A stretch of DNA of 64,000 nucleotides from an uncultured Acidobacteriota bacterium (GCA_963800865.1 CAWDCL010000004.1:1821800-1885799); one strand, 5' to 3'. Positions 1-64,000 are shown, counted from the stretch's first letter. Notes: generated by a model not told the origin, from the letters alone. Numbers and translations: made by a program.

Positions 1-309
1 CGCGATCAGCAGCGAGTAGACGCCCCAGGCCGCGATGAACAACCCCGCCACCACGGCCGCGGCCCGCTGCACGCCGGCCAGCGCGCCGCCGATCCCGTCG
101 ATCGCCGCGCCCAGCGTGCCCGCCAGCGCGCCGATCGCTGCGTAGACCAGGAGCCGGCCCAGCGAGTAGGCCGCGTGCGCGCCCCAGCTCGCGCGCCCCG
201 GCCCCGCCGTCCCGCCCGCGTAGAAGGCGACCAGTCCGCCGCACATCCCGGCGCAGTGCAGGCTGCCCAGCAGGCTGGCGACGAAGACCGTGGCGACGAG
301 GGCGCTCAC
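1..309 (-). CDS. Partial (3'-truncated by the window edge) membrane protein with an N-terminal HCxxMCGG motif. It lies downstream of fixH and is possibly a DsbD_2/TauE-like cbb3-associated membrane protein.
   Basis: My reverse-complement translation of 1..309 gives V/M-SALVATVFVASLLGSLHCAGMCGGLVAFYAGG..., which is hydrophobic and TM-like. Its GTG start overlaps the fixH stop (GTGA). The ORF runs off the window edge. Confidence 0.4.
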   Translation of the reverse strand, partial: MSALVATVFVASLLGSLHCAGMCGGLVAFYAGGTAGPGRASWGAHAAYSLGRLLVYAAIGALAGTLGAAIDGIGGALAGVQRAAAVVAGLFIAAWGVYSLLIA

Positions 310-797
310 GGCGTGATCCCGCAGACCTGGCGCAGCGTGTGGGTATAGGTCTCGGCGCCGCGCGTGATCGTGAAGCGCAGCTCCCACATCCCCGGCTCCA
401 GCCGGTCGAGCGTCCCCTCGTACCGGCGGTCGTCGCGCGCGGCGAGCGGGCCCGCCACGCGCCGGCCCGAGTTCGCTCCCTGGAACGCCTCGACCGCGAC
501 CGTCGCGCCCGGCAGCAGTTCCCCGTCCCGGCCGCGCAGCGCGGCCACGACCCAGGAGGCATTCGGCCCCGATCCGCAGCCCGCCTCGAGCCGCCAGCCC
601 AGCGCCTGGTTGGCGCTCTCCTGCGCCATCGTCCCGTCCCAGGCCAGCGCCTTCTGGTAGTAGTCCGGCTCGACCGCGAAGGTCGGGTCGCTGGTGGCCA
701 GCACGACCATCGCGACGTTGGCCCCGATCGCCAGCGCCAGCAGGCCGACGATCAGGAACGGCCAGAAGTGCCCCTTCCGCTTCCGTTCCTCAGTCAT
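306..797 (-). CDS. ccoH: FixH/CcoH, cbb3-type cytochrome oxidase assembly protein
   Basis: 163-aa ORF with an N-terminal TM helix (FWPFLIVGLLALAIGANVAMVVLA) and FixH-like periplasmic domain. It lies immediately downstream of ccoG and its start overlaps the ccoG stop. Confidence 0.7.
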   Translation of the reverse strand: MTEERKRKGHFWPFLIVGLLALAIGANVAMVVLATSDPTFAVEPDYYQKALAWDGTMAQESANQALGWRLEAGCGSGPNASWVVAALRGRDGELLPGATVAVEAFQGANSGRRVAGPLAARDDRRYEGTLDRLEPGMWELRFTITRGAETYTHTLRQVCGITP

Positions 798-2187
798 CAG
801 AGTCCTCCGGGCCGAGGAGCAGGTACTGCTCCTCCTCGACGAAGCCGGCGCCGTCGTCGACGCGGAACGTCACCGGCAGCTGCCCGTCGTCGAAGCGGCC
901 CTTCGACGCGCTGACGAAGATTGTCGTCGTCGCCGACCCGCCGTCGGCCACGGCGAGCGGGTTCTCCGGCGCGATGATCGCCAGCCCCGCCGGCGCGGCG
1001 ATCGACAGCGCGTACTTCCGGTCGGCGCCGCTGCGGTTGACGATCTTGATCCGGATCTGGTTCGCGATCTCCCCGGCCGGCGTCTCGACGAACGGTGCGC
1101 CGATCCCGCGCAGCACGGTCACGTCGGCCGCGCCGCGCCGGGCCAGCGCCACCCCCAGCGCGCCGAAGACCAGCACGAGCAGCACCGGGTAGATGATCAC
1201 GCGCGGCCGCAGGATCCGGCTGGGCTTCCGGTCGAAGCCGTCGACCGAGCCGTAGCGGATCAGTCCGCGCGGCCGCCCGATCCGATCCATGATCCCGTCG
1301 CAGGCGTCGATGCACTGGGTGCAGGCGACGCACTCCATCTGCAGCCCCTTCCGGATGTCGATCCCGGTCGGGCAGGTGATCACGCAGGCCTTGCAGTCGA
1401 TGCAGTCGCCGTAGCTCGCTCCCGGCGGGTCGGCCTTCCTCGGCCGGCCGCGCGGCTCGCCGCGGGCCGCGTCGTAACCGATGATCAGCGAGCGCCGGTC
1501 GAGCAGCACCGACTGGAACCGCCCGTAGGGGCAGGCGACGAGGCAGGTCTGCTCGCGGAACCAGGCGAAGTCCAGGAACATCGCGAGCGTCGTCCCGGCC
1601 ATCACCAGGAAGGCCGTCGGGTGCTCCACCGGCGACTGGCGGACCCAGCGCCAGAGCGCCTCCACGCCGACGAAGTAGGCCAGGAAGGTGTGGGCCAGGC
1701 CCATCGACAGCAGGAAGAAGACGAGCCACTTGGCGACGCGACGCAGGTTCGGGCCCTCACGGTCGAGCCGCATCTGCTTGCCGCGGTCGCCTTCGAACAG
1801 CCGCTCGATCGGCCGGTAGAGGTACTCCATGTAGACCGTCTGCGGGCAGCCCCAGCCGCACCAGACGCGTCCCAGGATCGCCGTCAGCAGGAAGATGGAG
1901 ATGAAGATGCCGACCAGCAGCAGCATCAGGAACATCGTGTCGGTCGGCAGGAAGGTCGTCCCGAACAGCGTGAACTGGCGCTTCGTGATGTCGAGCAGGA
2001 TCAGCGGCTTGCCGTTCATCCGGAGGTACGGGATCACCGTGAAGAGCGCGATCAGGGCCCAGGCCACGACGAAGCGCGCCTTCCAGAACCGGCCCTTCGC
2101 GGGCTTCGGCCGGATCCAGATCCGCTTCCCGTGCGCGTCGAGCGTCGAGAGGACCTGTTCGCCCGCGTCCGGGATCAGGGGGTTCAT
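790..2187 (-). CDS. ccoG: CcoG/FixG, cbb3 oxidase accessory 4Fe-4S ferredoxin-type membrane protein
   Basis: The real start is the internal ATG at 2187 (MNPLIPDAGEQ...). The N-terminal extension of the 669-aa track ORF is a GC artefact. Two ferredoxin Cys clusters (CPQTVYME, CIDCKACVITCP / CVACTQCIDAC) and TM helices are present. The start overlaps the ccoP stop (ATGA). Confidence 0.85.
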   Translation of the reverse strand: MNPLIPDAGEQVLSTLDAHGKRIWIRPKPAKGRFWKARFVVAWALIALFTVIPYLRMNGKPLILLDITKRQFTLFGTTFLPTDTMFLMLLLVGIFISIFLLTAILGRVWCGWGCPQTVYMEYLYRPIERLFEGDRGKQMRLDREGPNLRRVAKWLVFFLLSMGLAHTFLAYFVGVEALWRWVRQSPVEHPTAFLVMAGTTLAMFLDFAWFREQTCLVACPYGRFQSVLLDRRSLIIGYDAARGEPRGRPRKADPPGASYGDCIDCKACVITCPTGIDIRKGLQMECVACTQCIDACDGIMDRIGRPRGLIRYGSVDGFDRKPSRILRPRVIIYPVLLVLVFGALGVALARRGAADVTVLRGIGAPFVETPAGEIANQIRIKIVNRSGADRKYALSIAAPAGLAIIAPENPLAVADGGSATTTIFVSASKGRFDDGQLPVTFRVDDGAGFVEEEQYLLLGPEDSDD

Positions 2188-2885
2188 GGGGCCTTCGGCG
2201 CTCCGGCGGGCGCAGTCGCGGGCGGCCCGGCGCAGCCGATGGCGAAGCCGGGTCCTTCGGTGCGTTGGCGACGATCTCGGCGTCGGCCTTCGCTTCCAGC
2301 GTCTCGCGCTGCGAGGCGTCGAACCGGTCGCCCTGCGGGGCCTTGGGGTTGGGCGGGTTCGTTCCCTTGAGCGTGTCGACGTAGGCGGCGACGCGTGAGG
2401 ATCTGCGCGATCGGGAGCTGCGTCTTCCACGACAGCATCCCCTTGGCCGGGACCCCTTCCATCACCGTGGTGTAGATCTGCGTCGGCAGCGCGCCGTGCA
2501 GCCAGAAGTCGTCGGTCAGGTTGGGGCCGATGTTCCCCTCGCCCTGCATCCCGTGGCAGGGGGAGCACTTCGACTGGAACAGCGCCTGCGCCGCCAGCAT
2601 CTTGTTCTGGTCGCCCTTGAGGCCGTTGAGGGTCTGGTTGGTGATCGGCCCCAGCTTGAGGATCTCCTTCATCTGCATGTCGGAGACGACCAGCATGTTG
2701 CGGTTGTACTGCCCCTCGACCGACTCGCCGGCGCCGAGGTGGTAGTAGACCAGGTAGAACGCCGAGGAGGCGATCGTCAGCCAGAAGAGCACCAGCCACC
2801 AGGTCGGCAGCGGGTTGTCGTACTCCTGGATCCCGTCGAAGGCGTGGTGGCGGAGTTCGTCCTGGGTCGTCAGGTGCTCAGACAT
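2184..2885 (-). CDS. ccoP: CcoP, cbb3-type cytochrome c oxidase subunit III. It appears mono-haem (one CxxCH) and the C-terminal third has ambiguous reading-frame continuity.
   Basis: The real start is ATG at 2885 (MSEHLTTQDELRHHAFDGIQEYDNPLPTWW...), which carries the conserved CcoP N-terminal motif. There is a single CSPCH haem motif. Downstream of ...PIAQILT the annotated frame becomes Arg-rich junk, while the +1 frame encodes a canonical cytochrome c terminal helix (VAAYVDTLKG...). The annotated stop overlaps the ccoG ATG. Confidence 0.7.
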   Translation of the reverse strand: MSEHLTTQDELRHHAFDGIQEYDNPLPTWWLVLFWLTIASSAFYLVYYHLGAGESVEGQYNRNMLVVSDMQMKEILKLGPITNQTLNGLKGDQNKMLAAQALFQSKCSPCHGMQGEGNIGPNLTDDFWLHGALPTQIYTTVMEGVPAKGMLSWKTQLPIAQILTRRRLRRHAQGNEPAQPQGPAGRPVRRLAARDAGSEGRRRDRRQRTEGPGFAIGCAGPPATAPAGAPKAP

Positions 2886-3102: not shown

Positions 3103-5414
3103 CAGTGCGTTCCCGCGGGGGCGGGTGCGGCGCCGGCGGCCGGGTCGACGGTGGGCGATCCGGGAGCGGCCTCGGCCTGGGCCGGCGCCGGCGGGGCGGC
3201 CGGGGGCTCGCCCGGCGGCGGCAGGTTCTTGATGTCGGTCCCCAGCCGCTGCATGTAGGCCACCAGCGCGATCACCTTCCGGTCCTCGAGCCCCTTCGGC
3301 CCGCCCTGCGCGACGATCGCCTCGGAGATCTTCGCCGCCTGGGCCCGCGCCGCGTCGATCCCGCCCGCGATGTCGGCCTCGCCGTAGGGGACCCCCAGCG
3401 TGCGCATCGCCTTCATGTGGGCCGGGATCGAGCCGAAGTCGAGCGGCGACGCCAGCAGCCACTGGTAGCGCGGCATGATCGACTGCGGCGTCGTGGAGCG
3501 CGGGTTCTCGAAGTGGCGGACGTGCCAGAGGTCGGGGTACTTGCCGCCCACCCGCTGCAGGTCCGGCCCGATCCGGCGCGAGCCCCACTGGAAGGGGTGG
3601 TCGTAGACCGACTCGCCCGGCTTGGCGTACTCGCCGTAGCGCAGCACCTCGGCGTAGATCGGCCGCACCTGCTGGGAGTGGCAGTTGTAGCACCCCTCCG
3701 CCAGGTAGATGTCGCGGCCCGCCAGCTCGAGCGGCGTGAACGGCTTGACCGAGGCGATCGTCGGGACGTTCGCCTTGATCGTGAAGAGCGGAACGATCTG
3801 GAACAGCGACGCGGTGATCACCGCGACCGCGACCCAGACCGTGAAGACCAGCGGCAGCCGCTCCCAGCGGCCGTGCCAGCCGGCGGAGGCGAAGCGCTCG
3901 AGCTTGTAGGCGAAGTTGGTGACGTGGGCCCCGGTCGAGCGCAGGTAGGACGGCCGCGGCGCCGGGTCGACGTAGTGCCTGGCGAGCGCCGGAGCCTCGT
4001 AGACCGGGACCTCGTAGCGTGCGGGGCGCCGGGTCCAGGTCATCACGCCGTTGACGACGCACATGATCGCGCCGACCAGGTAGAGCGTGCCGCCGACGAC
4101 GCGGACCCAGTACATCGGGATCAGCTTCATCGTGGTCTCGATGAAGTCGGGGTAGGCCAGCTGGCCGGTGTCGGTGAAGGCCCGCCACATCAGGCCCTGG
4201 GTCAGGCCGGCGGCGTAGATCGCCACGATGTAGAGCAGGATCCCGACGGTCGCGATCCAGAAGTGGACCTCGGCCCACTTGCGGCTCCACAGCTCGGTCT
4301 GGAACAGCCGCGGGAAGAGCCAGTAGAGCATCCCGAAGGCCATGAAGCCGACCCAGCCCAGCGCGCCGGCGTGGACGTGGGCGATCGTCCAGTCGGTGTA
4401 GTGCGAGAGCGCGTTGACGCTCTTGATCGAGAGCAGCGGCCCCTCGAAGGTCGACATCCCGTAGAAGGTGATCGCGACCACGAAGAACTTCAGGACCGGG
4501 TCCTCGGTGACCTTGTTCCAGGCGCCGCGCAGGGTCAGCAGGCCGTTGATCATCCCGCCCCAGGAGGGCATCCAGAGCATCACCGAGAAGAGCATCCCCA
4601 GCGTCGAGGCCCAGGCCGGCAGCGCGGTGTAGTGCAGGTGGTGCGGCCCGGCCCAGATATAGATGAAGACCAGCGACCAGAAGTGCAGGATCGACAGCTT
4701 GTAGGAGTAGACGGGGCGGTTCGCGGCCTTGGGCAGGAAGTAGTACATCATCCCGAGGATCGGCGTCGTCAGCAGGAAGCCGACCGCGTTGTGGCCGTAC
4801 CACCACTGCATGAAGGCGTCCTGCACGCCGGGGTAGATCGAGTAGCTCTTCAGCCAGCCGGCGGGGACCGCCAGGCTGTTGAAGATGTGCAGCAGCGCGA
4901 TCGTCACCACGGTCGCGATGTAGAACCAGATCGCGACGTAGAGGTGCCGCTCGCGGCGGACCGCGATCGTGCCGAAGAAGTTGACCGCGAAGATCACCCA
5001 GACCAGCGCGATCACGATGTCGATCGGCCACTCCAGCTCGGCGTACTCCTTCCCCGACGTGACGCCGGCCAGGAGCGTCACCGCGGCGGAGACGATGATC
5101 AGCTGCCAGCCCCAGAAGTGGAGCCGGCCGAGCGTGTCGTTCCACATCCGCGTCCTGAGCAGGCGCTGCATCGAGTAGTAGACGCCGGCAAAGATCGCGT
5201 TCGCGGTGAACGCGAAGATGACCGCGTTGGTGTGCAGCGGGCGCAGCCGGCCGAACGACAGCCACGAGGTGGCGAAGTTGAAGGCCGGGTTGGCCAGCTG
5301 CAGCGCGGCGATCACGCCGACCAGCATGCCGACGACGCCCCACAGCATCGTCGCCCAGACGAACATCCGGACGAGGCCGTCGTCGTAGGAAAAGCGTTCC
5401 AACCGTTCGCTCAT
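3102..5414 (-). CDS. ccoNO: Fused CcoN-CcoO (cbb3-type cytochrome c oxidase subunits I+II)
   Basis: 770 aa. The N-terminal ~480 aa is a haem-copper oxidase subunit I with 12 TM helices and conserved His ligands (HNAVGF, HHLHYTA, HVHAGALG). The C-terminal ~250 aa is a CcoO mono-haem domain with CYNCHS. Fused NO proteins are known in several phyla. Confidence 0.9.
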   Translation of the reverse strand: MSERLERFSYDDGLVRMFVWATMLWGVVGMLVGVIAALQLANPAFNFATSWLSFGRLRPLHTNAVIFAFTANAIFAGVYYSMQRLLRTRMWNDTLGRLHFWGWQLIIVSAAVTLLAGVTSGKEYAELEWPIDIVIALVWVIFAVNFFGTIAVRRERHLYVAIWFYIATVVTIALLHIFNSLAVPAGWLKSYSIYPGVQDAFMQWWYGHNAVGFLLTTPILGMMYYFLPKAANRPVYSYKLSILHFWSLVFIYIWAGPHHLHYTALPAWASTLGMLFSVMLWMPSWGGMINGLLTLRGAWNKVTEDPVLKFFVVAITFYGMSTFEGPLLSIKSVNALSHYTDWTIAHVHAGALGWVGFMAFGMLYWLFPRLFQTELWSRKWAEVHFWIATVGILLYIVAIYAAGLTQGLMWRAFTDTGQLAYPDFIETTMKLIPMYWVRVVGGTLYLVGAIMCVVNGVMTWTRRPARYEVPVYEAPALARHYVDPAPRPSYLRSTGAHVTNFAYKLERFASAGWHGRWERLPLVFTVWVAVAVITASLFQIVPLFTIKANVPTIASVKPFTPLELAGRDIYLAEGCYNCHSQQVRPIYAEVLRYGEYAKPGESVYDHPFQWGSRRIGPDLQRVGGKYPDLWHVRHFENPRSTTPQSIMPRYQWLLASPLDFGSIPAHMKAMRTLGVPYGEADIAGGIDAARAQAAKISEAIVAQGGPKGLEDRKVIALVAYMQRLGTDIKNLPPPGEPPAAPPAPAQAEAAPGSPTVDPAAGAAPAPAGTH

Positions 5415-6029: not shown

Positions 6030-6782
6030 ATGCCAAGGAAGCCCAAGGGGATGCGTGGCGGCACCCAGCCGCTGCGGCCGACCGCGTGCCTCGCCTGCGA
6101 AGCCCGCGGGACGACCGAGTGGTGCGGCCTGCCGGAGGATGACGTCCGGCTTCTCAGTCAGTCCAAGGTGAGCAACGTCTACCGGCCGGGGCAGGTCGTC
6201 TTCTACCAGGGGCAGCCGTGCCTCGGCCTGCACTGCATCGAGTCCGGGACGGTCGCGCTGCGCAAGACCGACGCGCGGGGCGACTCGGTCATCGCGCGGC
6301 TGTTCCACGGCGGCCAGACGCTGGGCTACCTGGCCTACTTCGCGCGGCGTCCCTACACCGGCACCGCCGAGGCGGTCACGGAGTGCCGGATCTGCTTCAT
6401 CGACAAGGCGGCGGTGCGGACGATCGTGTCGCGCAACCCGGGGGTCGCGCAGCGCTTCCTCGGCCGGATCGCCGACAACCTCTCCGAGGCCGAGGACGCG
6501 CGGCTTGCCGCCTCGACCCTCCCGCTGCGCTCGCGCCTGGCCGAGCTGCTGGTCGCGGTCCGCGACCGCTTCGGCGCGGCCGGAGAGGACGGGACGATCA
6601 CGCTGCGGCTGCCGCTCTCGCGCCAGGACATCGCGGCGATGCTCGGCGCGCGGCCGGAGAGCCTCTCGCGCGCGATCCGCGAGCTGTCCGACGCGGGGGT
6701 GGCGGTCTTCGACGGCCGCGACGTGACGATCCCCGACCTCGACGCGCTGATCGACGAAGCGGAGCAGGCGGGGGGCGCGTGA
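6030..6782 (+). CDS. fnr: Crp/Fnr-family transcriptional regulator, FNR-type with an N-terminal Cys cluster
   Basis: The likely start is ATG 6030 (MPRKPKGMRGG...). There is an N-terminal Cys cluster (CLACEARGTTEWC), a cNMP-binding domain, and a C-terminal HTH (RQDIAAMLGARPESLSRAIRELSDAG). It is divergent from the cbb3 operon and shares the FNR box with it. Confidence 0.8.
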   Translation: MPRKPKGMRGGTQPLRPTACLACEARGTTEWCGLPEDDVRLLSQSKVSNVYRPGQVVFYQGQPCLGLHCIESGTVALRKTDARGDSVIARLFHGGQTLGYLAYFARRPYTGTAEAVTECRICFIDKAAVRTIVSRNPGVAQRFLGRIADNLSEAEDARLAASTLPLRSRLAELLVAVRDRFGAAGEDGTITLRLPLSRQDIAAMLGARPESLSRAIRELSDAGVAVFDGRDVTIPDLDALIDEAEQAGGA

Positions 6783-8653
6783 CGGCGCCGCCGGGCGGGC
6801 GCGGCGCGGGCGCGCTGCTCGCGGTCGCGCTGCTCGTCGCGCTGCTGGCGGGGGTCGCGTACCGCGGCGCGCTCGGCGCCGGGTGGATCTGGGACGACCG
6901 GCTGGTCGTGACGCAGCAGCTGCCCCGGTTTCACGGTGTCCGCGATGCCTTCTTCCCGGCCGGCGACGTGCCGCGCCTCGTGCCCCAGTACTACCGGCCG
7001 GCGGTCATCCTCTCGTGGCTGGTCGATGACGCCCTGGCCCGCCGCGCCGTCGGCGCACCGGGCGATTCCGGCGCGGCGCTCGACGGGGCGTCCGAGCGGC
7101 CGGTCGACGAGGCGCTCGACGGCGCGCGGCAGCGTGCGTTCCACCGGACGAACCTGCTGCTGCATGCGTCGAACGCGGCGCTCGTGGCCCTGCTGGCCGC
7201 GGCGCTGGCGGGCCTGGCTCCCGCGCCGTCCGCCCGCCGGCTCGCGATCGCGGCGGGGGCCGGAGCGCTGTTCGCGATCCATCCGCTGGCGGCCGAGCCG
7301 GTGACCTGGGCCGCCGGACGCTCGGATCTCCTCATGGCGCTGTTCGTCCTCGGCGCGCTGCTCTGCTTCGTGCGCGGGATCGCGCGGGGCGATCGGCTGG
7401 CGCTGGTGGCCGCGGGGGTTCTCTACCTGCCGGGCCTGCTCTCGAAGGAGTCGGCGCTCGGCGCGCTGTCCGCGTTCGCGCTGCTGGCGCTGGCCCGGCG
7501 CGACCCGGCGTCCGGCCCGCCACCGGCGCCGCGGCCCCTCGCCGCGCTCCTCCCGCTGGGCGCTGCGGCCGCCGTCTACGCGATCCTGCGCGGCGCCGCG
7601 GCGGGAGCGTCCGCCGTACCCCCGGTCGCGCCGGCGGCGGGCCGCCTTGCCGACGCGCTCGCGGTGCTCGGCTGGAGCGTCGAACGCGTGCTCTGGCCGT
7701 TTCCGATGGAGGTCTTCGTCGTCGACGTCGACTCCATCCCCCGCGCCGCGCTCGGCGCGGCGCTCGTCGCGGCCTGCTCGGCTGCGGTCGTGATGTTCGT
7801 CCGGCGCGGCGGCGGCTGGACGGTGCCTGCCGTCGCAGCGTCGCTCTTCCTCGGGCCGCTGCTCCCGCCGCTCGCGACGCTGGCCGGGGAGCTTTCCCCG
7901 GTGATCGCGGCGGAGCGCTACCTCTACCTCCCGCTGGCGGGATTCGCGATCGGCGTGACGTTCCTGCTGGCGGAAATCGGTGCGCGTTATGTGCCGGCGC
8001 GCGCCGCGCCCTGGCTGCCGGCTGCCGCGCTCGCGTTCGTCCTCGTTCCGGCGTGGCGCGTGACGGAAGCGAGGGTCGCCATCTGGTCCAGCGAGGAGCG
8101 GCTCTGGACGCTGGCGGTCGAGCAGGCGCCCGGGAGCCTGTTGCCGCAGCTCAACCTCGGGCTCGCGTACGACCGGTCGGGACGCGCCGACGAGGCGATC
8201 GCCGCGTATCGCCGCGCGGTGGAAGGGAAGGGGACCGATCGCGGCCGGGCGCTCGCCTTCTCGCACCTCGGCGCCGCGCTGCTGGCGAAGGGCGACCTTC
8301 CGGGCGCTGTCGCGGCGCTGTCGCAATCGGTTGCGCTCGATCCGCGCGCGGCCCGCACCCAGTACAACCTCGCCCACGCCCTGGTCCGACAGTCGGACCG
8401 CGTCGCGGATCGGGCGGCGCGCGACAACCTGCTTCAGGCCGCGCTCCCGCACTTCGAGGCCGCGCTCGAGAGCGACTCCGGCTACGTCCTGGCGCGTTTC
8501 CACTACGGCGACGTGCTGGCGCGCCTGGGCCAGGTGGACGCCGGGATCGCCGCGCTGGAAGAGGGCCTGGCGCGCGCGCCGGATCACTCCCAGGCGGCGC
8601 AGGCGCGGCGCCTGCTCGAGCGGCTGCGACGGGGAAGCAACGTAAGTCGGTAA
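6779..8653 (+). CDS. Multi-pass membrane protein with a C-terminal TPR repeat domain (GT-C/PMT-like membrane domain plus TPR, TMTC-like)
   Basis: The probable GTG start at 6779 overlaps the fnr stop. The N-terminal ~420 aa has many TM helices and a WIWDD motif in the first loop. The C-terminal ~200 aa has TPR-like repeats (LGLAYDRSGRADEAIAAYRRAV..., YNLAHALVRQ...). The N-terminal 190 aa of the track ORF is an artefact. Confidence 0.65.
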   Translation: MTAPPGGRGAGALLAVALLVALLAGVAYRGALGAGWIWDDRLVVTQQLPRFHGVRDAFFPAGDVPRLVPQYYRPAVILSWLVDDALARRAVGAPGDSGAALDGASERPVDEALDGARQRAFHRTNLLLHASNAALVALLAAALAGLAPAPSARRLAIAAGAGALFAIHPLAAEPVTWAAGRSDLLMALFVLGALLCFVRGIARGDRLALVAAGVLYLPGLLSKESALGALSAFALLALARRDPASGPPPAPRPLAALLPLGAAAAVYAILRGAAAGASAVPPVAPAAGRLADALAVLGWSVERVLWPFPMEVFVVDVDSIPRAALGAALVAACSAAVVMFVRRGGGWTVPAVAASLFLGPLLPPLATLAGELSPVIAAERYLYLPLAGFAIGVTFLLAEIGARYVPARAAPWLPAAALAFVLVPAWRVTEARVAIWSSEERLWTLAVEQAPGSLLPQLNLGLAYDRSGRADEAIAAYRRAVEGKGTDRGRALAFSHLGAALLAKGDLPGAVAALSQSVALDPRAARTQYNLAHALVRQSDRVADRAARDNLLQAALPHFEAALESDSGYVLARFHYGDVLARLGQVDAGIAALEEGLARAPDHSQAAQARRLLERLRRGSNVSR

Positions 8654-8697
8654 GCCGGCCTGCAGGACGGCGAGGGGGGCGCTTCGGGCCGGCCCGA

Positions 8698-9718
8698 CTA
8701 GTGCTGCGCCGCCGCCCGCCGGAGCCGGTCGTTGATCGCGTGCCCGAGTCCTTCCTCGGAGGGGAAGGGCTCGGCGATGATCGCGTCGAGCCCGGCCTCG
8801 TCCAGCTCGCGCAGCGCGCCGAAAAGGTGCCGCGCCGCCTCGACCGGGTCGGTGCCGAGGACCTCGACCGCCGCCGCCCCGGCCGGAACCGCGCCGCCGA
8901 AGAGCAGCACGCCGAAACGGCCGTCGCGCGCCGCCATCCAGGGCCGCGGCTCGAGCAGGACGGGCGTCCGTGGCGCGTAGTGGCTCTCGAGCTGTCCCGG
9001 AGCCGTGACCGGTCCGACCGACCGGCGCTCGCCGAGAGGGCCGCCCAGCACCGCCTCGAGCTCTTCGCGCCCGAGCCCGCCGGGCCGCAGCACGGTTGCA
9101 TTTCCCGAAGGATCGATCGCCACGACCGTCGACTCGAGCCCGACCTCGCACGGCCCGCCGTCCAGCACGAGTCCGATCCGGTCGCCCAGCTCGGCGGCGA
9201 CGTCCTCGGCCCGGGTCGGACTGATCCGGCCGAAGCGGTTCGCGCTGGGCGCGGCCAGCGGGACGCCGACCGCGGCGATCAGCGCCTGCGCCACCGCGTG
9301 CCGCGGCGCGCGCACGGCGACCGTCATCAGGCCCGCGGTCACGATGTCCGGGACGCGCGGCGCCTTCGGCAGCACGACCGTCAGCGGCCCAGGCCAGAAG
9401 GCGGCGAAGAGCGCGTCCGCCGCGCGGCACGCGTCGTCGCCCAGGGCCGCCGCGTCGACCAGCCCGAGCGCCGCCAGCGCCTCGACGGAGCGCGCAGCGT
9501 CCAGTCACGTGCACGATCAGCGGGTCGAAGCGCGGCCGATCCTTGACCGCGAAGACCCGCGCCACCGCCCGCTCGTCGAAACAGCACGCGGCCAGCCCGT
9601 AGACCGTCTCGGTCGGCATCCCGACCGGCTCGCCGCGCCGCAACGCTTCGACCGCGAGGCGGATCGCCTCGGGGGTCGGCGCCAGGATCCGCGCGCGCGC
9701 GCCGGGCCCGCGGTCCAC
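8698..9718 (-). pseudogene. tsaC: L-threonylcarbamoyladenylate synthase (Sua5/TsaC/YrdC family) gene interrupted by a frameshift near 9505
   Basis: The N-terminal YrdC motif (MPTETVYGLAA...DRPRFDPLIVHV) is in one frame (9507..9718; possible GTG start at 9718, 14 nt after the aspA stop). The continuation (LDAARSVEALAALGLVD...AFWPGPLTVVLPKAPRVPDIVTAGL...SANRFGRISPT... plus the Sua5 C-domain) is in the frame shifted by +1, with an in-frame TGA at the junction (CACGTGACTGG). Confidence 0.8.
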
Positions 9719-9729
9719 GCTCGGGCCGC

Positions 9730-11607
9730 TCAGCGCGCGCCGTCGCGCGGCAGCATCGGCCGCGGGCGGGTCATCGCCTCGGGGCTGAGCAGCTCGTCCA
9801 GCTCCCGCTCCGCGATGTAGCCGCGCGCCAGCACCAGGTCGCGCACCGGCGTCCCGGTCAGCAGCGCGTCGCGCGCGATCTCGCTGGCCCGCTCGTAGCC
9901 GAGCGCCGGGACCAGCGCGGTCACGATCCCGATCGAGTGCTCGACCATCGCCCGGGTGCGCTCGGGGTGGGCCTTGATCCCGCGCAGGCACAGCCGCTCG
10001 AGGGTGTCGATGGCCGAGGTCAGCATCTCCATCGACTGCAGCAGGTTGTAGGCGATGATCGGCTCCATCACGTTGAGCTGGAGCTGCCCGGCCTCCGCTG
10101 CGAGCGTGATCGCGAGGTCGTTCCCGATCACCTGGAAGGCGACCTGGTTGACGACCTCCGGGATCACCGGGTTGACCTTCCCCGGCATGATCGACGAGCC
10201 GGGCTGGACCGCCGGCAGCTCGATCTCGGAGAGGCCGCAGCGCGGCCCGGACGAGAGCAGGCGCAGGTCGTTGCACATCTTGGAGAGCTTGACCGCGACC
10301 CGCTTGATCACCCCCGAGAAGAGCACGAAGGCCCCGGTGTCGGGGGTGGCCTCGACGAGGTTCTCGGCCCGCACCAGGTCGAGCCCGGAGATCTTCCGCA
10401 GCTCTTCGATCGCGAGCTGCGGGTAGCGCGGGTCGGCGTTGATCCCGGTCCCGATCGCGGTCCCGCCGAGGTTCAGCTCGAGGAACAGCCGGACCGCCTC
10501 GCGCAGCCGCGCGATGTCCTCGCCGGTCGTGACCGCGAAGGCCCGGAACTCCTGGCCGAGCGTCATCGGCACCGCGTCCTGGAGCTGGGTGCGGCCCATC
10601 TTCAGCACGGTCCCGAACTCGTCCGCCTTGGCGTCGAGCGTGTCCTTCAGCCGCTCCAGCGCGGCCACCAGCCCGCGCAGCGTGAACTGCGTGGCCAGCC
10701 GCAGCGCGGTCGGGTAGACGTCGTTGGTCGACTGCGAGAGGTTGACATGGTTGTTGGGGTGGCAGCCCGCGTACTCGCCGCGCGCCTGCCCGAGCAGCTC
10801 CAGCGCGCGGTTGGCGATCACTTCGTTGGCGTTCATGTTGGTCGAGGTCCCGGCCCCGCCCTGGACCATGTCGACGACGAAGTGGCCGTGGAAGTGGCCG
10901 TCGACGATCTCCTGGCTGGCGCGGTCGATCGCCGCCGCGACCTCGGGGGAGAGCAGGCCCAGCTTGCGGTTCGCCCGCGCGGCGGCCTGCTTGACCATGG
11001 CCATCGAGCGCACCAGCGCCGGGAAGTGCGACAGCCGGATCCCGGTGATCGGGAAGTTCTCGACCGCGCGCAGCGTCTGGATCCCGTAGAGCGCGTCCTG
11101 CGGGACGTCACGCTCGCCGAGCAGGTCGTGCTCGCGGCGCGTGCCGCCGGAGGCGTAGGCCTTGGCGAGCCCGACCTCGCGCGAGCTGGCGTAGGTCAGG
11201 CGGCGCGTCATCAGCCGGCCGATCCGCCCCAGGACCTCCCACGCCGCCGCGCCGTCCTCGGCCAGCGCGGTGCGCAGCGCCTCGCGCGTCAGCTCGACGA
11301 GCGCGACCCGGCCCAGCGCGCGGGCGGAGGCCGAGTGCGGCGCGTCCGAGAACATCGCCCCCTCGCCCAGCGCCTCCCCTTCGCCCATCACGATCAGCGG
11401 CTCGACGTTGCCGTGGTGCTCGCGGAAGACCTCGAGCTGGCCGTCGGCGATCAGGTAGAGCGCCTCGCGCGGCGTTCCCTGGTGGAAGAGGATCTCGCCC
11501 GGCACGAGCGCGCGGTGCCGGGCGGCCGGCGCGAGCCGGGCCAGGATCTCCTCGGGGAGGTCCTTGAATTGCGGGAACCCGCGCAGGCGGGAGAGGATGT
11601 CGTCCAT
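9730..11607 (-). CDS. aspA: Aspartate ammonia-lyase (aspartase/fumarase class II family) with an N-terminal ~150-aa cyclic-nucleotide-binding domain fusion
   Basis: The C-terminal ~470 aa has the GSSIMPGKVNP signature loop and HFVVDMVQGGAGTSTNMNANEVIANRALELLG, which is aspartase-like. The N-terminal domain (MDDILSRLRGFPQFKDLPEEIL...GEGEALGEGAMF...SASARALGRVALVELTREAL) matches the cNMP-binding fold. 625 aa, compared with ~470 for typical AspA. Confidence 0.8.
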   Translation of the reverse strand: MDDILSRLRGFPQFKDLPEEILARLAPAARHRALVPGEILFHQGTPREALYLIADGQLEVFREHHGNVEPLIVMGEGEALGEGAMFSDAPHSASARALGRVALVELTREALRTALAEDGAAAWEVLGRIGRLMTRRLTYASSREVGLAKAYASGGTRREHDLLGERDVPQDALYGIQTLRAVENFPITGIRLSHFPALVRSMAMVKQAAARANRKLGLLSPEVAAAIDRASQEIVDGHFHGHFVVDMVQGGAGTSTNMNANEVIANRALELLGQARGEYAGCHPNNHVNLSQSTNDVYPTALRLATQFTLRGLVAALERLKDTLDAKADEFGTVLKMGRTQLQDAVPMTLGQEFRAFAVTTGEDIARLREAVRLFLELNLGGTAIGTGINADPRYPQLAIEELRKISGLDLVRAENLVEATPDTGAFVLFSGVIKRVAVKLSKMCNDLRLLSSGPRCGLSEIELPAVQPGSSIMPGKVNPVIPEVVNQVAFQVIGNDLAITLAAEAGQLQLNVMEPIIAYNLLQSMEMLTSAIDTLERLCLRGIKAHPERTRAMVEHSIGIVTALVPALGYERASEIARDALLTGTPVRDLVLARGYIAERELDELLSPEAMTRPRPMLPRDGAR

Positions 11608-13590: not shown

Positions 13591-14514
13591 ATGGAACGCG
13601 CCCGGAAGCTGAAGCTCGAGGATCGCGCCGCGGTGGCGGTCCTGCGCGCCGCGGGGGCGCTCCCCTTGCCGCTTGCCGGCCGGATCGGCGCCGCGGCGGG
13701 ACGCCTGCTCGCGCTGGCGCGGGGGAGCCGCCGTGTTCGCGTGGCGCAGCTCAACGTCGATCTCTGCTTTCCGGACCGCCCGGAGCAGTGGCGTCGCGAG
13801 ATCGTGACGAGGAGCCTCGTCCACGACGGCCGCGCGGCGATGGAGGCGGCGATCGCCTGGACCCGCGAGCCGGGCGCGCTGGCGCGCTACTTCCACCCCA
13901 CGACCGGGGAGGAGGTCTTCACCGGAACGCTCGCTTCCGGCCGCGGCGTGCTGTTGCTGGTGCCGCACATGGGCTCGTGGGAGGTCGTCAACCACTACGT
14001 GACCGCGCGCACGCCGATCACGATCATGTACCTCCCGAACGAGCGCCCCGGCCTCGACGCGCTGATCTACGGCGGCCGCAACCGGCTCGGGGCGACGATG
14101 GTCCCGGCCAACGAGCAGGGGGTCCGCGCCGTGCTCCGGACGCTGCGCGCGGGGGGCGTCTCGGCGATCCTCCCCGACCAGGTCCCGGACCCGTCGGGCG
14201 GTGTCTTCGCCCCCTTCTTCGGGCACACCACGCTGACGGCGACGCTGGCCTCGAAGCTGGTGCGGGTCTCGAAGGCGGCGGCGATGACCATCGTCTGCCT
14301 GCGCGACGAGAACCGCCCGGGGTTCCGGACCGTCTTCCAGTCCGCCGACTCCCTGGTCTACGACGACGACCTCGTCGCTTCGGTAACCGGGATCAACCGC
14401 ACGGTCGAGGCGGCGATCGCGCTCGCTCCGCAGCAGTACCACTGGGCCTATCGCCGATTCAAACGCCCGCCGCCGGGGGAGCGCGACCCCTACGACGGGA
14501 AGCTCGCGCGCTAA
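13591..14514 (+). CDS. Lysophospholipid/lipid A biosynthesis acyltransferase (LpxL/HtrB/MsbB family)
   Basis: ATG at 13591 (MERARKLKLEDRAAVAVLRAAG...). The HMGSWE (HX4E) acyltransferase motif and an overall LpxL-like architecture are present. Confidence 0.7.
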   Translation: MERARKLKLEDRAAVAVLRAAGALPLPLAGRIGAAAGRLLALARGSRRVRVAQLNVDLCFPDRPEQWRREIVTRSLVHDGRAAMEAAIAWTREPGALARYFHPTTGEEVFTGTLASGRGVLLLVPHMGSWEVVNHYVTARTPITIMYLPNERPGLDALIYGGRNRLGATMVPANEQGVRAVLRTLRAGGVSAILPDQVPDPSGGVFAPFFGHTTLTATLASKLVRVSKAAAMTIVCLRDENRPGFRTVFQSADSLVYDDDLVASVTGINRTVEAAIALAPQQYHWAYRRFKRPPPGERDPYDGKLAR

Positions 14515-15264
14515 CGCGAATGGCAGCAGCGCGACGATCCGCGCCGGCGCGCCGCTCCCGCCGCGGATCGGCAGCGGCAGCGCGACGACCAGGAAGCCCC
14601 GCGGCGGCAGCTCGTCGAGTCGCGCCAGGTTCTCGAGGACGACGACGCCCCGCGGCAGGAGCGCGCGGTGCGCCGCGAGGTCGGGCGAGTCGCCTGGGTC
14701 GATCCCCGCGGTGTCGATCCCGACCGCGGCGACGCCCCGCTCGACGGCGAGCCAGCGCGCCGCCTCGCGGTCGAGGCCCGGGAAGGCGAGCGCCGCGGCG
14801 CCGGTCTCCGTGCGATCGGCCGTTCCGAGGTAGCGCAGCGCGTCGGGCCAGCGCGACGACCAGCCGGTGGCGACCAGCACGATCGAGCCCGCTACCAGTG
14901 CGCCGTGCCGCGCCTCCCATTCCTCGAAGACGGCCCGCGTGACGCGGGCCAGCGGGTCGCCGCCGACCGCGCCGCGGGCGTCGACGCACGCCCCCTCGCC
15001 GACCAGCTGCTCGAGCGGCAGCGCCTCGACCGTCAGCCCCCCGGTGACGAAGTGCGCGGGCGCATCGATGTGCGTGCCGAAGTGCTCGGGAGAGGAGAAG
15101 CGGTGCGCGACGAGCCGCGTGCCATCGGTGAGGAACGCCTCCTCCGGCGCCTCGAGCCGGAACGGCGGCTCGCCGGGCCAGGCACAGCCCGCCCCGTCGA
15201 GCGGGTGCGTCAGGTCGATCGCACGGAAGCGGGGCAGGGGGGAGTCGGGCGGCTTCGCGATCAT
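14512..15264 (-). CDS. Cyclase-family protein (kynurenine formamidase/arylformamidase-like). The in-frame stop codon is missing and the 3' end is uncertain.
   Basis: HxGTHxDAPxH metal-binding motif (EHFGTHIDAPAHF). The likely start is ATG 15264 (MIAKPPDSPLPRFRAIDLTHPL). The coding frame runs on without a stop into the antisense of lpxL, while a TAG is available in the adjacent frame at 14511-14513. Confidence 0.55.
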
Positions 15265-15304: not shown

Positions 15305-16354
15305 ATGCCCACCTATCGCGTGATCGTCGAGTACGAAGGGACGCGCTATCGCGGCTGGCAGGAGCAGGAGAACGCCCGAACCGTCGGCGGCGAGCTGCGG
15401 CGCGCGCTCGCCCGGGCCGCGGGCCCGGTGCTCGACCTGGGCGCGTCGGGACGCACCGACGCCGGCGTGCACGCGCTGGCGCAGGTGGCCCACCTGCGGC
15501 TGGCGCGCTCGATCGACGTCGGCGAGGTGCGGCGCCAGGTGAACGAGCTACTGCCGACGGACATCGAGGTGCTGGCCCTCGAGCTCGCGCCGGAGCGGTT
15601 CCACGCGCGCCACGACGCGCTGCTGCGCAGTTACGTCTACCAGCTGTCGCGGCGCCGCACCGCCTTCGCCAAGCCGTTCGTCTGGTGGGTCAAGCGCCCG
15701 CTCGACACGGAACGCCTGCGGGAGGCCTGGTCGATGCTCGTCGGGCGCCACGACTTCGCCCGCTTCTGCGAGCAGCCGGCATCGCACCCGAGCACGGTCG
15801 TCGTCGTCGAGCGCGCCGAAGTCGCCGAGGACGGCGATCTCGTGCTGCTGCGCCTCGTGGCGTCGCACTTCCTGTGGAAGATGGTGCGGCGCCTGATCGG
15901 GACGGCGGTCGAGGTCGGCAGCGGCGACCTGCCGCCCGACCTGTTCGCGCACATGATCGCGGGCTACGAGTTGCCGGGGACCACGGGCGGGCCGGCGGCG
16001 TGGACGGCACCCCCCTCGGGGCTTTTCCTCGAGCGGGCGATCTACACCGGCGATCCGCCGCTGCCCGCGCTGGCCGCGATCACGCCGGTGACGACGGCGC
16101 CGGCCGGCGCGCCCGTCCTGGCGGTCAGGACAGCGAACCGAGCCGGCTCACGATCTGCTCCCGGAAGAGAGCGTCGCGACGATAGATCCCGTGGCAGCGC
16201 CGGCAGACCGGCTGGGGCTGGCCCCCGAGATGCGGCTGGAGCGTCGCGCGGGAGCGCGCGGCCGCGGGACGGTGCTCCCCGCAAAGGGGGCACAGGAAGG
16301 CCGGGACCGCCGCGGCGGCCTCCCGGCCGGCCTCCCGCGCGTCCGGTTCGTTGA
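15305..16354 (+). CDS. truA: tRNA pseudouridine(38-40) synthase TruA. The C-terminal ~80 aa of the ORF is probably not genuine.
   Basis: MPTYRVIVEYEGTRYRGWQEQ...GRTDAGVHALAQVAHL is the TruA catalytic motif (RTDAGVH). The ORF is 350 aa against ~260 for TruA. Its tail overlaps the 3' end of the convergent 16125..18446 gene by 230 nt. Confidence 0.75.
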   Translation: MPTYRVIVEYEGTRYRGWQEQENARTVGGELRRALARAAGPVLDLGASGRTDAGVHALAQVAHLRLARSIDVGEVRRQVNELLPTDIEVLALELAPERFHARHDALLRSYVYQLSRRRTAFAKPFVWWVKRPLDTERLREAWSMLVGRHDFARFCEQPASHPSTVVVVERAEVAEDGDLVLLRLVASHFLWKMVRRLIGTAVEVGSGDLPPDLFAHMIAGYELPGTTGGPAAWTAPPSGLFLERAIYTGDPPLPALAAITPVTTAPAGAPVLAVRTANRAGSRSAPGRERRDDRSRGSAGRPAGAGPRDAAGASRGSARPRDGAPRKGGTGRPGPPRRPPGRPPARPVR

Positions 16355-18446
16355 GCGGGGACCCCGCGTCACCGAGCACGGTCGCCAGGGCCGCGGCCTG
16401 GGCCGGCGACGGGTGCGCCGCGAACCGCCCCGGCCAACTCCGCACGAAGGCCTCGGCCTCGGGCCCGGCGGGGAAGAGCCCGCGATCGTTCTCCGGCGCG
16501 GCGAGGCGGCGCGGCTGCTCCGGGCAGCGCGCGTCGCAGCGCGCGAGGCAGACGTCGAACAGCAGCGACAGCGTGGCGCGGGTGAGGTCCTGGACCAGCC
16601 GCGCCAGGCCGGGGTCGTGCGTCGGGGGCGACCAGCCGAGATCGTGCAGCAGGGCCTCGTAGTCGTCCCGCAGCTCGGCCGCGAGCGCGTCGCGGTCGGC
16701 CGCGTCGGCAGTCCGGCCGGCGTCCCGTCCGGAGAACCGGCGCGTCGTCACCCGCGTTCCCACCTGCGCCAGCGCGAAGGCCGCGTCCTGCACGCGGTCG
16801 TCGTGCGGCCGCTCGCGCGGCGGCAGGCGCGAGGCCCAGACCTCGAAGGCGCGCATCAGGATCCAGGCCAGGTCGACGGCGAAGATCCGTGCCTTGGTCG
16901 GCCGGCGGCGGCCGAGCATCATCCCCATCACGGCGGTCCGTGAAGGGACCTCGGAGTGCGGGGCGAGGAAGTAGTGCCCCGGGTGGAGGCTCTCCCGGAC
17001 GAGCCGGCGCACGAGCGGGACCGCGGCGAACTGCCCCGTCGCGAGCGCACCCGTCACTGCGAGCGCCGTCGCCGCCTGCTCGCTCTCGCCGGCCGCGAGG
17101 TGGGCGACCGCGTTGTGAGCCAGCAGGCGCGTCAGGCGCCGCGCCTCGCCCGCCCGGCGGAGCGCCTCGGCGGCGCGGGTCACCGTCGCCTCGTCCGGCG
17201 GCGCGCCGGGCCGGGGCCGGGCCAGCAACGCCAGCCGGAACTCGTCGAGCGCGTGCTCCCCGGCGTCGTAGCACCAGTCGGCGTAGCCCGGTGCGTCGAG
17301 CAGCCGGTCCGAGCGCGCGAGCAGCGCCGCCGGCGGAGGTTCGGCCGCCGCGCGCGGCTCGGCCGAGCGCGGTGCCAGGTCGGCCAGCGGATCGAGCAGC
17401 CGGCGCGCCACGAGGTGATCGCGCGGCGCGATGCGGCCGTCGCGCAGGTCGGCGCGCTCGGCCTCGATCAGCATCGCCCACGCCGCGGGGACCGGGATCT
17501 CGAACAGCAGCGGGCCGTCCGCGGCCTCGTCGTCCACCGCGAGGCTGTCGTACCGCCCGACCTCGTGGCCCGCCAGCGCGAGCGCATCGCGTACGCCGGC
17601 ATCGAGGCTCAGGAGGAAGAGCGCCGAGCGGGGACGCAGCCCCGGCCGCCGGAAATCGAACCGCAGCGGAAAGACCCCGGTTCCGTCGCAGAAGCCGACC
17701 CGCGCGGACCAGCCGTCCGGCACGTGCAGCGGATCGGCCTCCGCGGCGAGCACGGCCAGCGCGCCGGTGATCAGGTCGCGCTCGTCGGACCCGCGCGGGG
17801 CCACGCGCCGCAGGCCGGCGCGCGCCGCCGCGTGCGCGGTGCGGGCCAGCGCCTCCAGCAGGAAGAGCCGCAGCGCCGGGTCGCGCTCGACCTCGAGCAG
17901 CATCTCGAACATCCCGGCACGCGCCTCGGGATCGTGCAGCTCGTCGTCCTGCAGCGCGATCCAGCCGGCGCGCTCGTCGCGCGGGGCGAGCTGGTAGAGC
18001 CGGGCGAGCGGATAGCGCAGGGCCGGCTCCTCGGCGACGAAGCGGGCCTGCCAGCGCAGGACCAGCGCGGTGACGTCGTCGGCGCTGAGCAGGTCGGGCT
18101 GATCGTGACCGAGCAGCACGAGCGCGCAGGCGACGCGCGCCGATTCCGGGGCGCCGGGGTCGTTGGCGACCGCGGCGAGCGCGGCGTCGTCCTCGGCCCG
18201 CGCGAGCCGCCCCAGCACCTCGAGCGCGGCGACCTCGTCCGCGACGCGCCCTTCGCGGTGCAGCAGGAGGATCTGGCGCACGGCGAGGCTGCGGCGTTTC
18301 GACAGTTCCGAGAGGGCCCGGTCGAACTGGGCGCCATTCCAGGCGGGGTGGCGCATGAGGTCACCGAGCAGATTGCGCACGGCTCTCCGCGCCGCGAAGG
18401 GAGACTGATCGAGCCTCCCCGCGTCCCCACCCCGGACCCGACCCAT
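16125..18446 (-). CDS. Large hypothetical protein (~773 aa) with a C-terminal CxxC...CxxC zinc-ribbon-like motif
   Basis: The real start is probably ATG 18446 (MGRVRGG...) or ATG 18356. The upstream 645 aa of the 1419-aa track ORF is antisense to the GWxTD gene. It is Ala/Leu/Arg-rich and helical, and ends ...CPLCGEH...CRRCHG. No family was recognised. Confidence 0.5.
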   Translation of the reverse strand: MGRVRGGDAGRLDQSPFAARRAVRNLLGDLMRHPAWNGAQFDRALSELSKRRSLAVRQILLLHREGRVADEVAALEVLGRLARAEDDAALAAVANDPGAPESARVACALVLLGHDQPDLLSADDVTALVLRWQARFVAEEPALRYPLARLYQLAPRDERAGWIALQDDELHDPEARAGMFEMLLEVERDPALRLFLLEALARTAHAAARAGLRRVAPRGSDERDLITGALAVLAAEADPLHVPDGWSARVGFCDGTGVFPLRFDFRRPGLRPRSALFLLSLDAGVRDALALAGHEVGRYDSLAVDDEAADGPLLFEIPVPAAWAMLIEAERADLRDGRIAPRDHLVARRLLDPLADLAPRSAEPRAAAEPPPAALLARSDRLLDAPGYADWCYDAGEHALDEFRLALLARPRPGAPPDEATVTRAAEALRRAGEARRLTRLLAHNAVAHLAAGESEQAATALAVTGALATGQFAAVPLVRRLVRESLHPGHYFLAPHSEVPSRTAVMGMMLGRRRPTKARIFAVDLAWILMRAFEVWASRLPPRERPHDDRVQDAAFALAQVGTRVTTRRFSGRDAGRTADAADRDALAAELRDDYEALLHDLGWSPPTHDPGLARLVQDLTRATLSLLFDVCLARCDARCPEQPRRLAAPENDRGLFPAGPEAEAFVRSWPGRFAAHPSPAQAAALATVLGDAGSPLNEPDAREAGREAAAAVPAFLCPLCGEHRPAAARSRATLQPHLGGQPQPVCRRCHGIYRRDALFREQIVSRLGSLS

Positions 18447-24539: not shown

Positions 24540-24653
24540 GAGAGGTTCCCGGCGCGTGATCCCGAGGGGGGAGGCCGCGGCACTCTACCACGCGGTCTCG
24601 CCTCGATTCTTCCTGGGGGATCCGGTCCGCCCCGCCGGCACCGGGGTCCGGGA

Positions 24654-25859: not shown

Positions 25860-25930
25860 GCGCGCCCCGGTTCGAATGTCGTCGCTGGAGGGGGCCGGGG
25901 CAAGCCCGGCCGTTTGGTACCATCCGGCGG

Positions 25931-44182: not shown

Positions 44183-44184
44183 CG

Positions 44185-50991: not shown

Positions 50992-50994
50992 TCC

Positions 50995-59126: not shown

Positions 59127-61866
<2,740 letters not shown>

Positions 61867-61885
61867 CGAAGAGACGAACTCCCCG

Positions 61886-63205: not shown

Positions 63206-63314
63206 GCCGGAGGCTTACCCGGAGTTGACGCACCCGGGGGGCGCTGTTACCTTACCGAGCCTTTTTCCGGCCACGACCCGCTGCGCGCGGCGGGCCTCGG
63301 GTTGGGGGAGACGA

Positions 63315-63710
63315 ATGAGGAAGCGCGAGCGCGACAAGTTCCTGAAGCTGCTCGAGACGCGTCGGCAGACCCTCCTTGCCCGTTCGGCCCGCACCGCCGA
63401 GGAAGGCCGCGAAGTCGTGCCCGAGGGGGGCGAGGACTACGTCGACGACGCCGTGACCCACTACACGCGGGAGTTCCTGCTCTCGCTCTCCGACCTCGAG
63501 CGGCGCCAGGTGCTGCAGGTCGAAGAGGCGATCGTCCGGGTCCGGGAAGGGACCTTCGGCGAGTGCATGTCGTGCGGGGACGAGATCGAGCCCAAGCGGC
63601 TCGAGGCGGTCCCCTGGGCCCGCTACTGCGTCTCGTGCCAGGAGATCGCCGAGAAGGAAGAGCTGGCCGAGCGCTACCACGTGCGGGACATCTCCGAGGA
63701 AGAAGAGTAG
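63315..63710 (+). CDS. DksA/TraR-family C4-type zinc-finger protein
   Basis: ATG 63315 preceded by GGGGGAG. CMSCGDEI…CVSCQ zinc finger and coiled-coil N-terminus. The 52-aa N-terminal extension of the track ORF is spurious. Confidence 0.75.
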   Translation: MRKRERDKFLKLLETRRQTLLARSARTAEEGREVVPEGGEDYVDDAVTHYTREFLLSLSDLERRQVLQVEEAIVRVREGTFGECMSCGDEIEPKRLEAVPWARYCVSCQEIAEKEELAERYHVRDISEEEE

Positions 63711-63718
63711 GCGCGGTC

Positions 63719-64000
63719 ATGTCCGGCCCCGGCACGGCGGTGGTCAGCGGCCGGGGCGCGCGCCGGGCCCGTCGCGGCCACCCCTGGATCCATCGCGAGG
63801 ACCTTCGAGCCGCCGAGGCGGATCCCGGCGAGATCGTGCGCGTGCTCGACGCCTCCGGCGCGCCGTGCGGCTGGGCCGCGTACTCTCCCGCTTCGCGGAT
63901 CGTGCTCCGGATCGTGCGCCGCGGCGGCGCAGCCGGTGATGCGCCCCCCGCCGAGGCCTTCTGGTCGGCCCGGCTCGAGCGGGCGCTCTCCGCGCGCGGC
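63719..64000 (+). CDS. Class I SAM-dependent rRNA methyltransferase (RlmI/RlmK-like, PUA-like N-terminal domain), 5' part only
   Basis: MSGPGTAVVSGRGARRARRGHPWIHREDL…IVRVLDASGAPCGWAAYSPASRIVLRIV matches the RlmI N-terminal PUA/EEHEE region. It runs off the window. Confidence 0.6.
   Translation, partial: MSGPGTAVVSGRGARRARRGHPWIHREDLRAAEADPGEIVRVLDASGAPCGWAAYSPASRIVLRIVRRGGAAGDAPPAEAFWSARLERALSARG

Follow-up and report, generated by a model that had tools for sequence, protein, structure and literature searches.

Frameshifts in conserved genes of an uncultured Acidobacteriota contig are very probably consensus errors of a long-read metagenome assembly

Why would so many conserved genes of one bacterium be out of frame at once? 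The question is raised by a stretch of 64,000 nucleotides from an uncultured Acidobacteriota bacterium (GCA_963800865.1 CAWDCL010000004.1:1821800-1885799; this whole stretch is called the window below), in which ppdK, thrC, ftcD, sua5/tsaC, ccoP and several other genes are interrupted by frameshifts. A sequence-only reading of the window had estimated about one lesion per 6–7 kb outside ppdK and had named two possible causes, an error-prone assembly or a genome undergoing gene decay. Our analysis supports the former and rejects the latter: the lesions are very probably consensus errors of the deposited long-read metagenome assembly, and the real genes of the organism would be intact. This conclusion is supported because the lesions are private to the window, are absent from independent read-based contigs wherever these cover them, can be repaired to full-length genes under purifying selection, and have no counterpart in sibling assemblies, which are damaged at other places.

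The lesions were judged against a relative, CAVPCQ010000009.1 (‘uncultured Acidobacteriota bacterium isolate MFD00032.bin.3.232’; loci L001-L005), whose 79,942-bp contig is collinear with the whole window at 90–95% nucleotide identity. This relative is a Microflora Danica (MFD) long-read, Nanopore-only metagenome-assembled genome (MAG). As the sequence-only reading had proposed, the affected genes were compared with their orthologues, and in the relative they are all intact, encoding Sua5 of 342 aa, FixP of 235 aa, the cyclase of 251 aa, FtcD of 556 aa, the protease of 519 aa, ThrC of 383 aa, the GSDH-type dehydrogenase of 810 aa and PpdK of 904 aa. In a tblastn census of 51 genes, 9 were broken in the window and 4 in the relative; the two sets had no gene in common, and there was no nonsense codon. 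The relative's private lesions consist of a 560-aa pyrR-pyrB fusion (L003:10001-11683), a broken anti-sigma-like gene, and a GH3 and an M23 peptidase gene that are both truncated; projected onto the window, its private frameshifts fall at 37773, 44182-44652, 46641 and 47690. The anti-sigma-like gene of the relative contains four extra-base events, and an independent contig (L019, see below) agrees with the window's intact version. Another MAG from the relative's sample, MFD00032.bin.3.166 (L010), carries a different ftcD frameshift, at about residue 464 (L010:18006-19669). A MAG of a different project, Prado002 (L009), showed no frameshift in the genes checked, with ThrC, FtcD, the protease and the covered part of the GSDH gene each in one frame. 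No lesion of the window recurred in the relative, L009 or L010.

As a proxy for read-level evidence, we used four Logan contigs (L006, L007, L019 and L020) from run ERR10755939, which cover 12.8 kb of the window at 99.7–99.9% identity. Over this length the window and the Logan contigs differ by 13 substitutions, of which 9 are synonymous changes in third codon positions, 3 are non-synonymous and 1 lies between genes, and this is the pattern of real strain differences. They also differ by only three gaps, and each of these is a gene-breaking insertion in the window. L006 matches window positions 21525-27132 at 99.93% with the ftcD insertion as its sole gap, L020 matches 31697-33588 at 99.74% with the thrC insertion as its sole gap, and L019 matches 43828-46246 at 99.92% with the insertion at 45859 as its sole gap, while L007 has no gap at all. 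Thus, all three lesions covered (22794/5, 32157 and 45859) are absent from the Logan population. Substitutions that have passed the filter of selection, together with indels every one of which is a frameshift, do not make coherent biology. The same contigs can also uphold the window: at 25924, where an indel separates it from the relative, L006 agrees with the window, so that this difference is real. Two of the contigs, L006 and L007, stop at 27132 and 59228, some 250 bp short of the insertions at 27387 and 59477. De Bruijn contigs end at strain branches, and these ends may be due to such branching in the read graph.

How the lesions were located deserves some detail, as the window has a GC content of about 73%, contains no tRNA gene over its 64 kb and holds open reading frames (ORFs) longer than 100 aa in all six frames, so that ORF lists alone mislead. 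The coding frame was therefore mapped along the window with a codon-usage score trained on the longest ORFs that were rich in GC at third positions. Most same-strand frame changes proved to be ordinary gene junctions, for example ccoG/ccoH, recO/glyQ/glyS and pyrF/pyrD/pyrK; the frame switches at the latter two sites were considered as candidate lesions and rejected as ordinary gene overlaps. Some frame changes fall within genes, and between 59.1 and 61.9 kb the frame switches about every 100 bp. Individual lesions were placed by base-level alignment to the collinear relative, and domain splits were read from Pfam (Table 1).

Table 1. Frame-disrupting lesions of the window, in window coordinates.
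Gene	Lesion	Position	Strand	Placement and effect
ccoP/fixP	1-nt insertion	2392	-	frame shifts after ‘...LPIAQILT’; aligned to the relative's intact 235-aa FixP
ccoP/fixP	second, compensating shift	2205-2228	-	three-frame translation; repaired tail matches homologues P0345 and P0344
sua5/tsaC	1-nt insertion	9503	-	within the Sua5_yciO_yrdC domain; profile positions 1-50 and 61-178 in different frames
cyclase (PF04199)	frameshift, net -2 at 14521/2	14513-14524	-	ten bases before the stop; ORF runs on to 13189
ftcD	1-nt insertion	22794/22795	-	within the formiminotransferase domain; Pfam FTCD profile 1-66 and 63-145 in two frames
trypsin-like protease	1-nt insertion	27387	+	codon 19; first 17 residues (signal peptide) in another frame
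thrC	1-nt insertion	32157	-	within the PALP domain; Pfam PALP profile 6-123 and 125-295 in two frames
GSDH/PQQ-type dehydrogenase with PKD domains	1-nt insertion	41657	-	between the GSDH/PKD part and the C-terminal PKD-like domain
hypothetical 346-aa gene	1-nt insertion	45859	+	four bases short of the stop; ORF extends to 46082
ppdK	20 single-nt insertions and one 2-nt insertion, no deletions, one in-frame 3-nt difference	59477-61683	+	aligned to the relative's intact 904-aa gene

Outside ppdK there are nine frameshifting events in eight genes (two in ccoP and one each in sua5/tsaC, the cyclase gene, ftcD, the protease gene, thrC, the PQQ/GSDH dehydrogenase gene and the 346-aa gene). Spread over about 61 kb, this amounts to roughly one per 6.8 kb, as had been estimated, and such a rate is far above that of an intact free-living genome. 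The sequence-only reading had come close to most of the sites, with approximate positions of 2405 and 2250 for the two ccoP shifts, 9505 for sua5/tsaC, 22797 for ftcD, 27385 for the protease signal peptide, 32150 for thrC and 41655 for the PQQ dehydrogenase; the insertion at 45859 was missing from its list. At about 14515 it had seen a lost stop of the cyclase gene: a lesion does exist there, but it is a frameshift and the stop codon itself is not lost.

Once repaired, ThrC (383 aa), FtcD (556 aa), the GSDH protein (810 aa), PpdK (905 aa), the protease (519 aa) and Sua5 are full length, with ratios of non-synonymous to synonymous substitution (dN/dS) of 0.13–0.25. In sua5, residues 1-73 and 75-336 lie in two frames that become a single one after repair. 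The insertion in ftcD interrupts a gene that is intact at 556 aa not only in the relative but also in L006. Repair of the protease restores ‘MEAVRHRSRAAALALCLVVAASAA...’ and yields a protein 96.5% identical to that of the relative, and the ORF of the dehydrogenase, whose GSDH domain itself is whole, attains the same length as its orthologue. The thrC insertion creates an 834-aa thrC-rarA ORF, whereas ThrC is intact in the relative, L009 and L010; the 346-aa gene is unbroken at this length in L019.

Two of the lesions can be described less exactly. In ccoP, the Pfam domain Cytochrome_CBB3 breaks off at position 57 of its 68-position profile, and the shifted frame encodes the conserved ‘AAYVDTLKGTNPPNPKAPQGDRF’, as found in P0344, P0345 and P0056; the second shift then restores the frame so that the ccoP stop overlaps the ccoG start (ATGA). 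The simplest reading of this second shift is the loss of 1 nt from a C run, or else a 2-nt insertion, its exact base not being fixable within the low-complexity tail. In the cyclase gene, the domain itself is whole and the window is 2 nt shorter than the relative's gene, while deleting any single base at the site leads to a 250-aa product with the same TAG stop; the lesion is either a deletion of 2 nt or a 1-nt insertion that accompanies a real 3-nt deletion. A Logan cyclase (P0073) was considered as an arbiter and set aside, as it belongs to a relative-like strain and not to that of the window.

The densest damage is found in ppdK, which the sequence-only reading had likewise recognized as broken. 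Here insertions occur at about one per 100 bp over 2.2 kb, compared to about one per 7 kb elsewhere, and the Pfam domains PPDK_N and PEP-utilizers_C are spread over at least six frame pieces. Removal of the 22 inserted bases gives the 905-aa ORF, which is 91.5% identical to that of the relative with a dN/dS of 0.24, and the repaired protein has 7 lineage-unique residues versus 10 in the relative, that is, no excess. Given this low dN/dS and the lack of excess unique residues, there was no spell of relaxed constraint in which 21 frameshifts could have accumulated in ppdK. The 13 non-homopolymer (non-slidable) insertions of this gene all adjoin a third codon position, for which chance would give (2/3)^13, about 0.005, in what is a post hoc test. 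The Logan contig beside ppdK, L007, stops before the first ppdK insertion, and the exact PhoH-like protein encoded downstream of ppdK is also missing from Logan.

The damage is already part of the public record. The intact proteins of the window and its broken products are exact members of the protein set on one deposited 3,269,294-bp NCBI/ENA contig, and because the broken products sit on this public source contig, the lesions were deposited and not introduced later. Among them are a ThrC fragment of 195 aa, a CcoP of 233 aa with part of its sequence garbled, two PpdK pieces of 176 and 140 aa, a 123-aa C-terminal fragment of the GSDH protein (P0061) and a 502-aa protease that starts at TTG and lacks the signal peptide (P0068); several are already cluster representatives in the protein collection. 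The expectation that automated gene calls would go wrong in this region is thus borne out, with about 18% of the window's genes mis-called as fragments, with garbled stretches or with a lost signal peptide. The 834-aa thrC-rarA fusion, which had been predicted as one such product, is present as an ORF in the sequence, but as a gene product it is not on the public record, and neither are the long cyclase ORF and a 349-aa TruA. Any pathway reconstruction, pseudogene count or protein database built on such MAGs takes over false gene losses and junk clusters of proteins. The biological weight of the lesions, by contrast, is nil, as the organism very probably has intact ccoP, tsaC, ftcD, thrC, ppdK and the other genes.

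With regard to how such errors could arise, the source would be a Nanopore-only assembly like that of the closest relative. MFD MAGs were assembled from Nanopore reads only, with metaFlye followed by a single Medaka round and no polishing by short reads (PMC12313526). Nanopore R10.4 consensus sequences have been described as near-finished at a coverage of about 40-fold, as judged by protein truncation in the IDEEL test (PMC9262707). Like the indel errors of Nanopore-only assemblies (PMC9262707; PMC12313526), the lesions of the window are single-base indels that split conserved genes, are private to one assembly and are absent from assemblies of accurate reads, and sibling MAGs of the same pipeline are hit at different sites. 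The consensus step may have kept an extra base where depth was modest or strains were mixed; in a strain mixture, both alleles of a site that differs between strains can enter the sequence in succession. For the dense ppdK cluster, the most likely origin is a segment in which two strains were piled up or depth was very low. The alternative for this gene, that ppdK is truly riddled with +1 insertions left by an insertion-biased process of some other kind, is hardly credible, even though no independent reads cover ppdK.

We are thus dealing with a known problem, residual indels in long-read-only MAGs, that bears an unusual signature. The spectrum comprises 27 single-base insertions and one 2-nt insertion against at most one or two deletions, and the second ccoP shift is the only possible contraction of a C run. 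The inserted base differs from both of its neighbours in 20 of the 27 single-base cases and lies in a run of two in the other 7, but never in a run of three or more; the suspicion that the frameshift sites would coincide with homopolymers was therefore not confirmed, and the errors are not of the classic Nanopore homopolymer type. The window differs from usual Nanopore indel errors in this respect, in its almost exclusive use of insertions and in the presence of 21 of them within one 2.2-kb gene. With respect to a systematic error linked to methylation motifs, in which the sites would share a short motif, no k-mer stood out: the best 5-mer, GACGC, occurs at 5 insertion sites with an uncorrected p of 0.002 among 87 k-mers tested, and is not significant after correction. 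GACGC (or GCGTC) is formed at 2392, 22794, 59477, 59714 and one more site, ACGCGT at two sites and GACGCTCG at two. Whatever its cause, an insertion-only, non-homopolymer signature combined with a local cluster of about 1% error is a useful diagnostic for this class of assembly.

Consensus errors at variable sites, where two haplotypes or strains collapse in a long-read assembly, are a known class of artefact. It is possible, if on balance doubtful, that the extra bases of the window mark sites at which two co-existing strains differ, both alleles having been written in tandem, and that the ppdK cluster corresponds to a locally divergent, for instance recombined, ppdK allele segregating in the population. 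The likeness to collapsed haplotypes lies in the extra base that differs from its neighbours, in the third-position adjacency within ppdK, and in the two adjacent bases at the ftcD and ccoP insertions, which equal two alleles found in close relatives: at the ftcD site the window has AC[G][C], the Logan contig ACC and the relative ACG, and at the ccoP site, where the window has [C][G]TC, close homologues have Leu or Val. Allele doubling can be put forward only as a hypothesis, because outside ppdK the codon-position bias is lost, the insertions in thrC and at 45859 are at odds with it, and the statistic on codon positions is a post hoc one. Were it true, hidden strain variation could be mapped by mining long-read MAGs for frameshift ‘lesions’.

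Several points weigh against ascribing all of the lesions to consensus errors of a Nanopore assembly. The Logan contigs cover only 3 of about 30 events and leave about 27 outside their coverage, and as the strain of ERR10755939 differs from the window by about 0.1–0.3%, they are a proxy and do not represent the same reads. There is also no close independent PpdK, since the repaired full-length protein used as a query retrieved nothing closer than 91%, and a 241-aa fragment retrieved nothing above 84% and only fragments of similar length. A look-up of PurC gave no match. The non-homopolymer character of the insertions belongs here as well, as do the disappearance of the ppdK codon-position bias outside that gene and the two insertions, in thrC and at 45859, that cannot be read as third-position alleles written twice. 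Finally, the status of a Nanopore MAG is established for the relative, and we infer the platform and the sample of the window from it; the window's accessions appear in no searchable paper text, and its genome is not among the species representatives.

The other cause originally proposed, genuine decay in a lineage that is losing ppdK, thrC, ftcD, sua5 and further genes through real frameshifts, is nevertheless highly unlikely. It would account for the many conserved genes affected in one 64-kb stretch and for a ppdK as shattered as an old pseudogene, and since the Logan strain is not identical to that of the window, strain-specific lesions are formally conceivable. The pseudogenes of known decaying genomes, such as those of Mycobacterium leprae and recent symbionts, resemble the window in having multiple frameshifts in conserved housekeeping genes. 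Bacterial pseudogenes, however, show a deletion bias and a mixed lesion spectrum, whereas the window has insertions and deletions in a proportion of about 27 to 1–2 and not a single nonsense codon. Selection has not been relaxed either, as the repaired genes are under purifying selection and PpdK is free of excess unique changes, and the substitutions that separate the window from Logan are mostly synonymous, yet all gaps are frameshifts. Above all, none of the lesions is shared with the relative, L009 or L010, and the three that can be checked are absent from independent reads of a population that is 99.7–99.9% identical. A variant of the idea, in which some lesions are real frameshift alleles of low or medium frequency in a mixed population that were picked up by the consensus, is in keeping with the strain-level variation that exists (13 single-nucleotide polymorphisms in 12.8 kb) and with the Logan contigs that break near two of the lesions. 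It is a very improbable one all the same, as it needs about 30 independent alleles, 21 of them in one gene and all of them insertions, and strikes thrC and sua5/tsaC, which are usually important genes.

Two further explanations dispense with damage altogether. That spurious ORFs in very GC-rich DNA misled the sequence-only reading and that there are no lesions at all is almost certainly wrong: ORFs exceeding 100 aa do occur in all six frames and the claim of a lesion in the truA tail dissolves (see below), but Pfam domain splits, base-level alignments and the tblastn census show real frame changes in nine genes. The chance that programmed recoding, by ribosomal frameshifting or transcriptional slippage, restores the frames is virtually nil. 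The frames on both sides of each shift are well conserved, and in prfB and dnaX, where programmed frameshifts are known, a single shift similarly joins two conserved frames; in contrast to these genes, however, no slippery run is present at any site of the window (the inserted base stands in a run of one or two), the shifts are not conserved in orthologues, and 21 of them in one gene are implausible. Consensus error in the assembly is the explanation that we retain.

One reported lesion was rejected. The C-terminal tail of truA (16127-16354, +) had been listed as affected, but the relative has the same long ORF with the same stop and a similar tail, and across the gene there is a single +1/-1 pair, 3 nt apart, that leaves the net frame unchanged relative to this orthologue. 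The tail itself is rich in Arg, Pro and Gly, about 75–100 aa long, and shares about 230 nt with a convergent gene for a 773-aa protein; its sequence is also conserved in the relative, and as a protein segment it is predicted only.

Some features of the surrounding genes are worth recording. CcoN and CcoO are fused in one 770-aa protein (COX1 + FixO; 3105-5414, -), the counterpart of which in the relative has 768 aa, and the same locus contains the complete ccoNO-Q-P-G-H gene set. Between a CRP-like regulator and sua5 lies a gene for a 625-aa protein with C-terminal TPR repeats (6776-8650, +); the 1.9-kb segment that holds it (6783-8710) has no counterpart in the collinear relative, where only about 74 bp take its place. 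Another protein of 625 aa (9733-11607, -) is an enzyme of the aspartate ammonia-lyase/fumarase type with an N-terminal cyclic-nucleotide-binding domain (cNMP_binding + Lyase_1 + FumaraseC_C), and this unusual cNMP_binding-Lyase_1 combination is kept in a 17-member cluster of Acidobacteriota sequences. Four conserved proteins had no Pfam match (773 aa, 16128-18446, -; 585 aa, 35261-37015, +; 401 aa, 24657-25859, -; and 346 aa, 44823-45858, +); all four are intact and conserved in the relative, and the sole exception in the window is the stop-proximal insertion at 45859.

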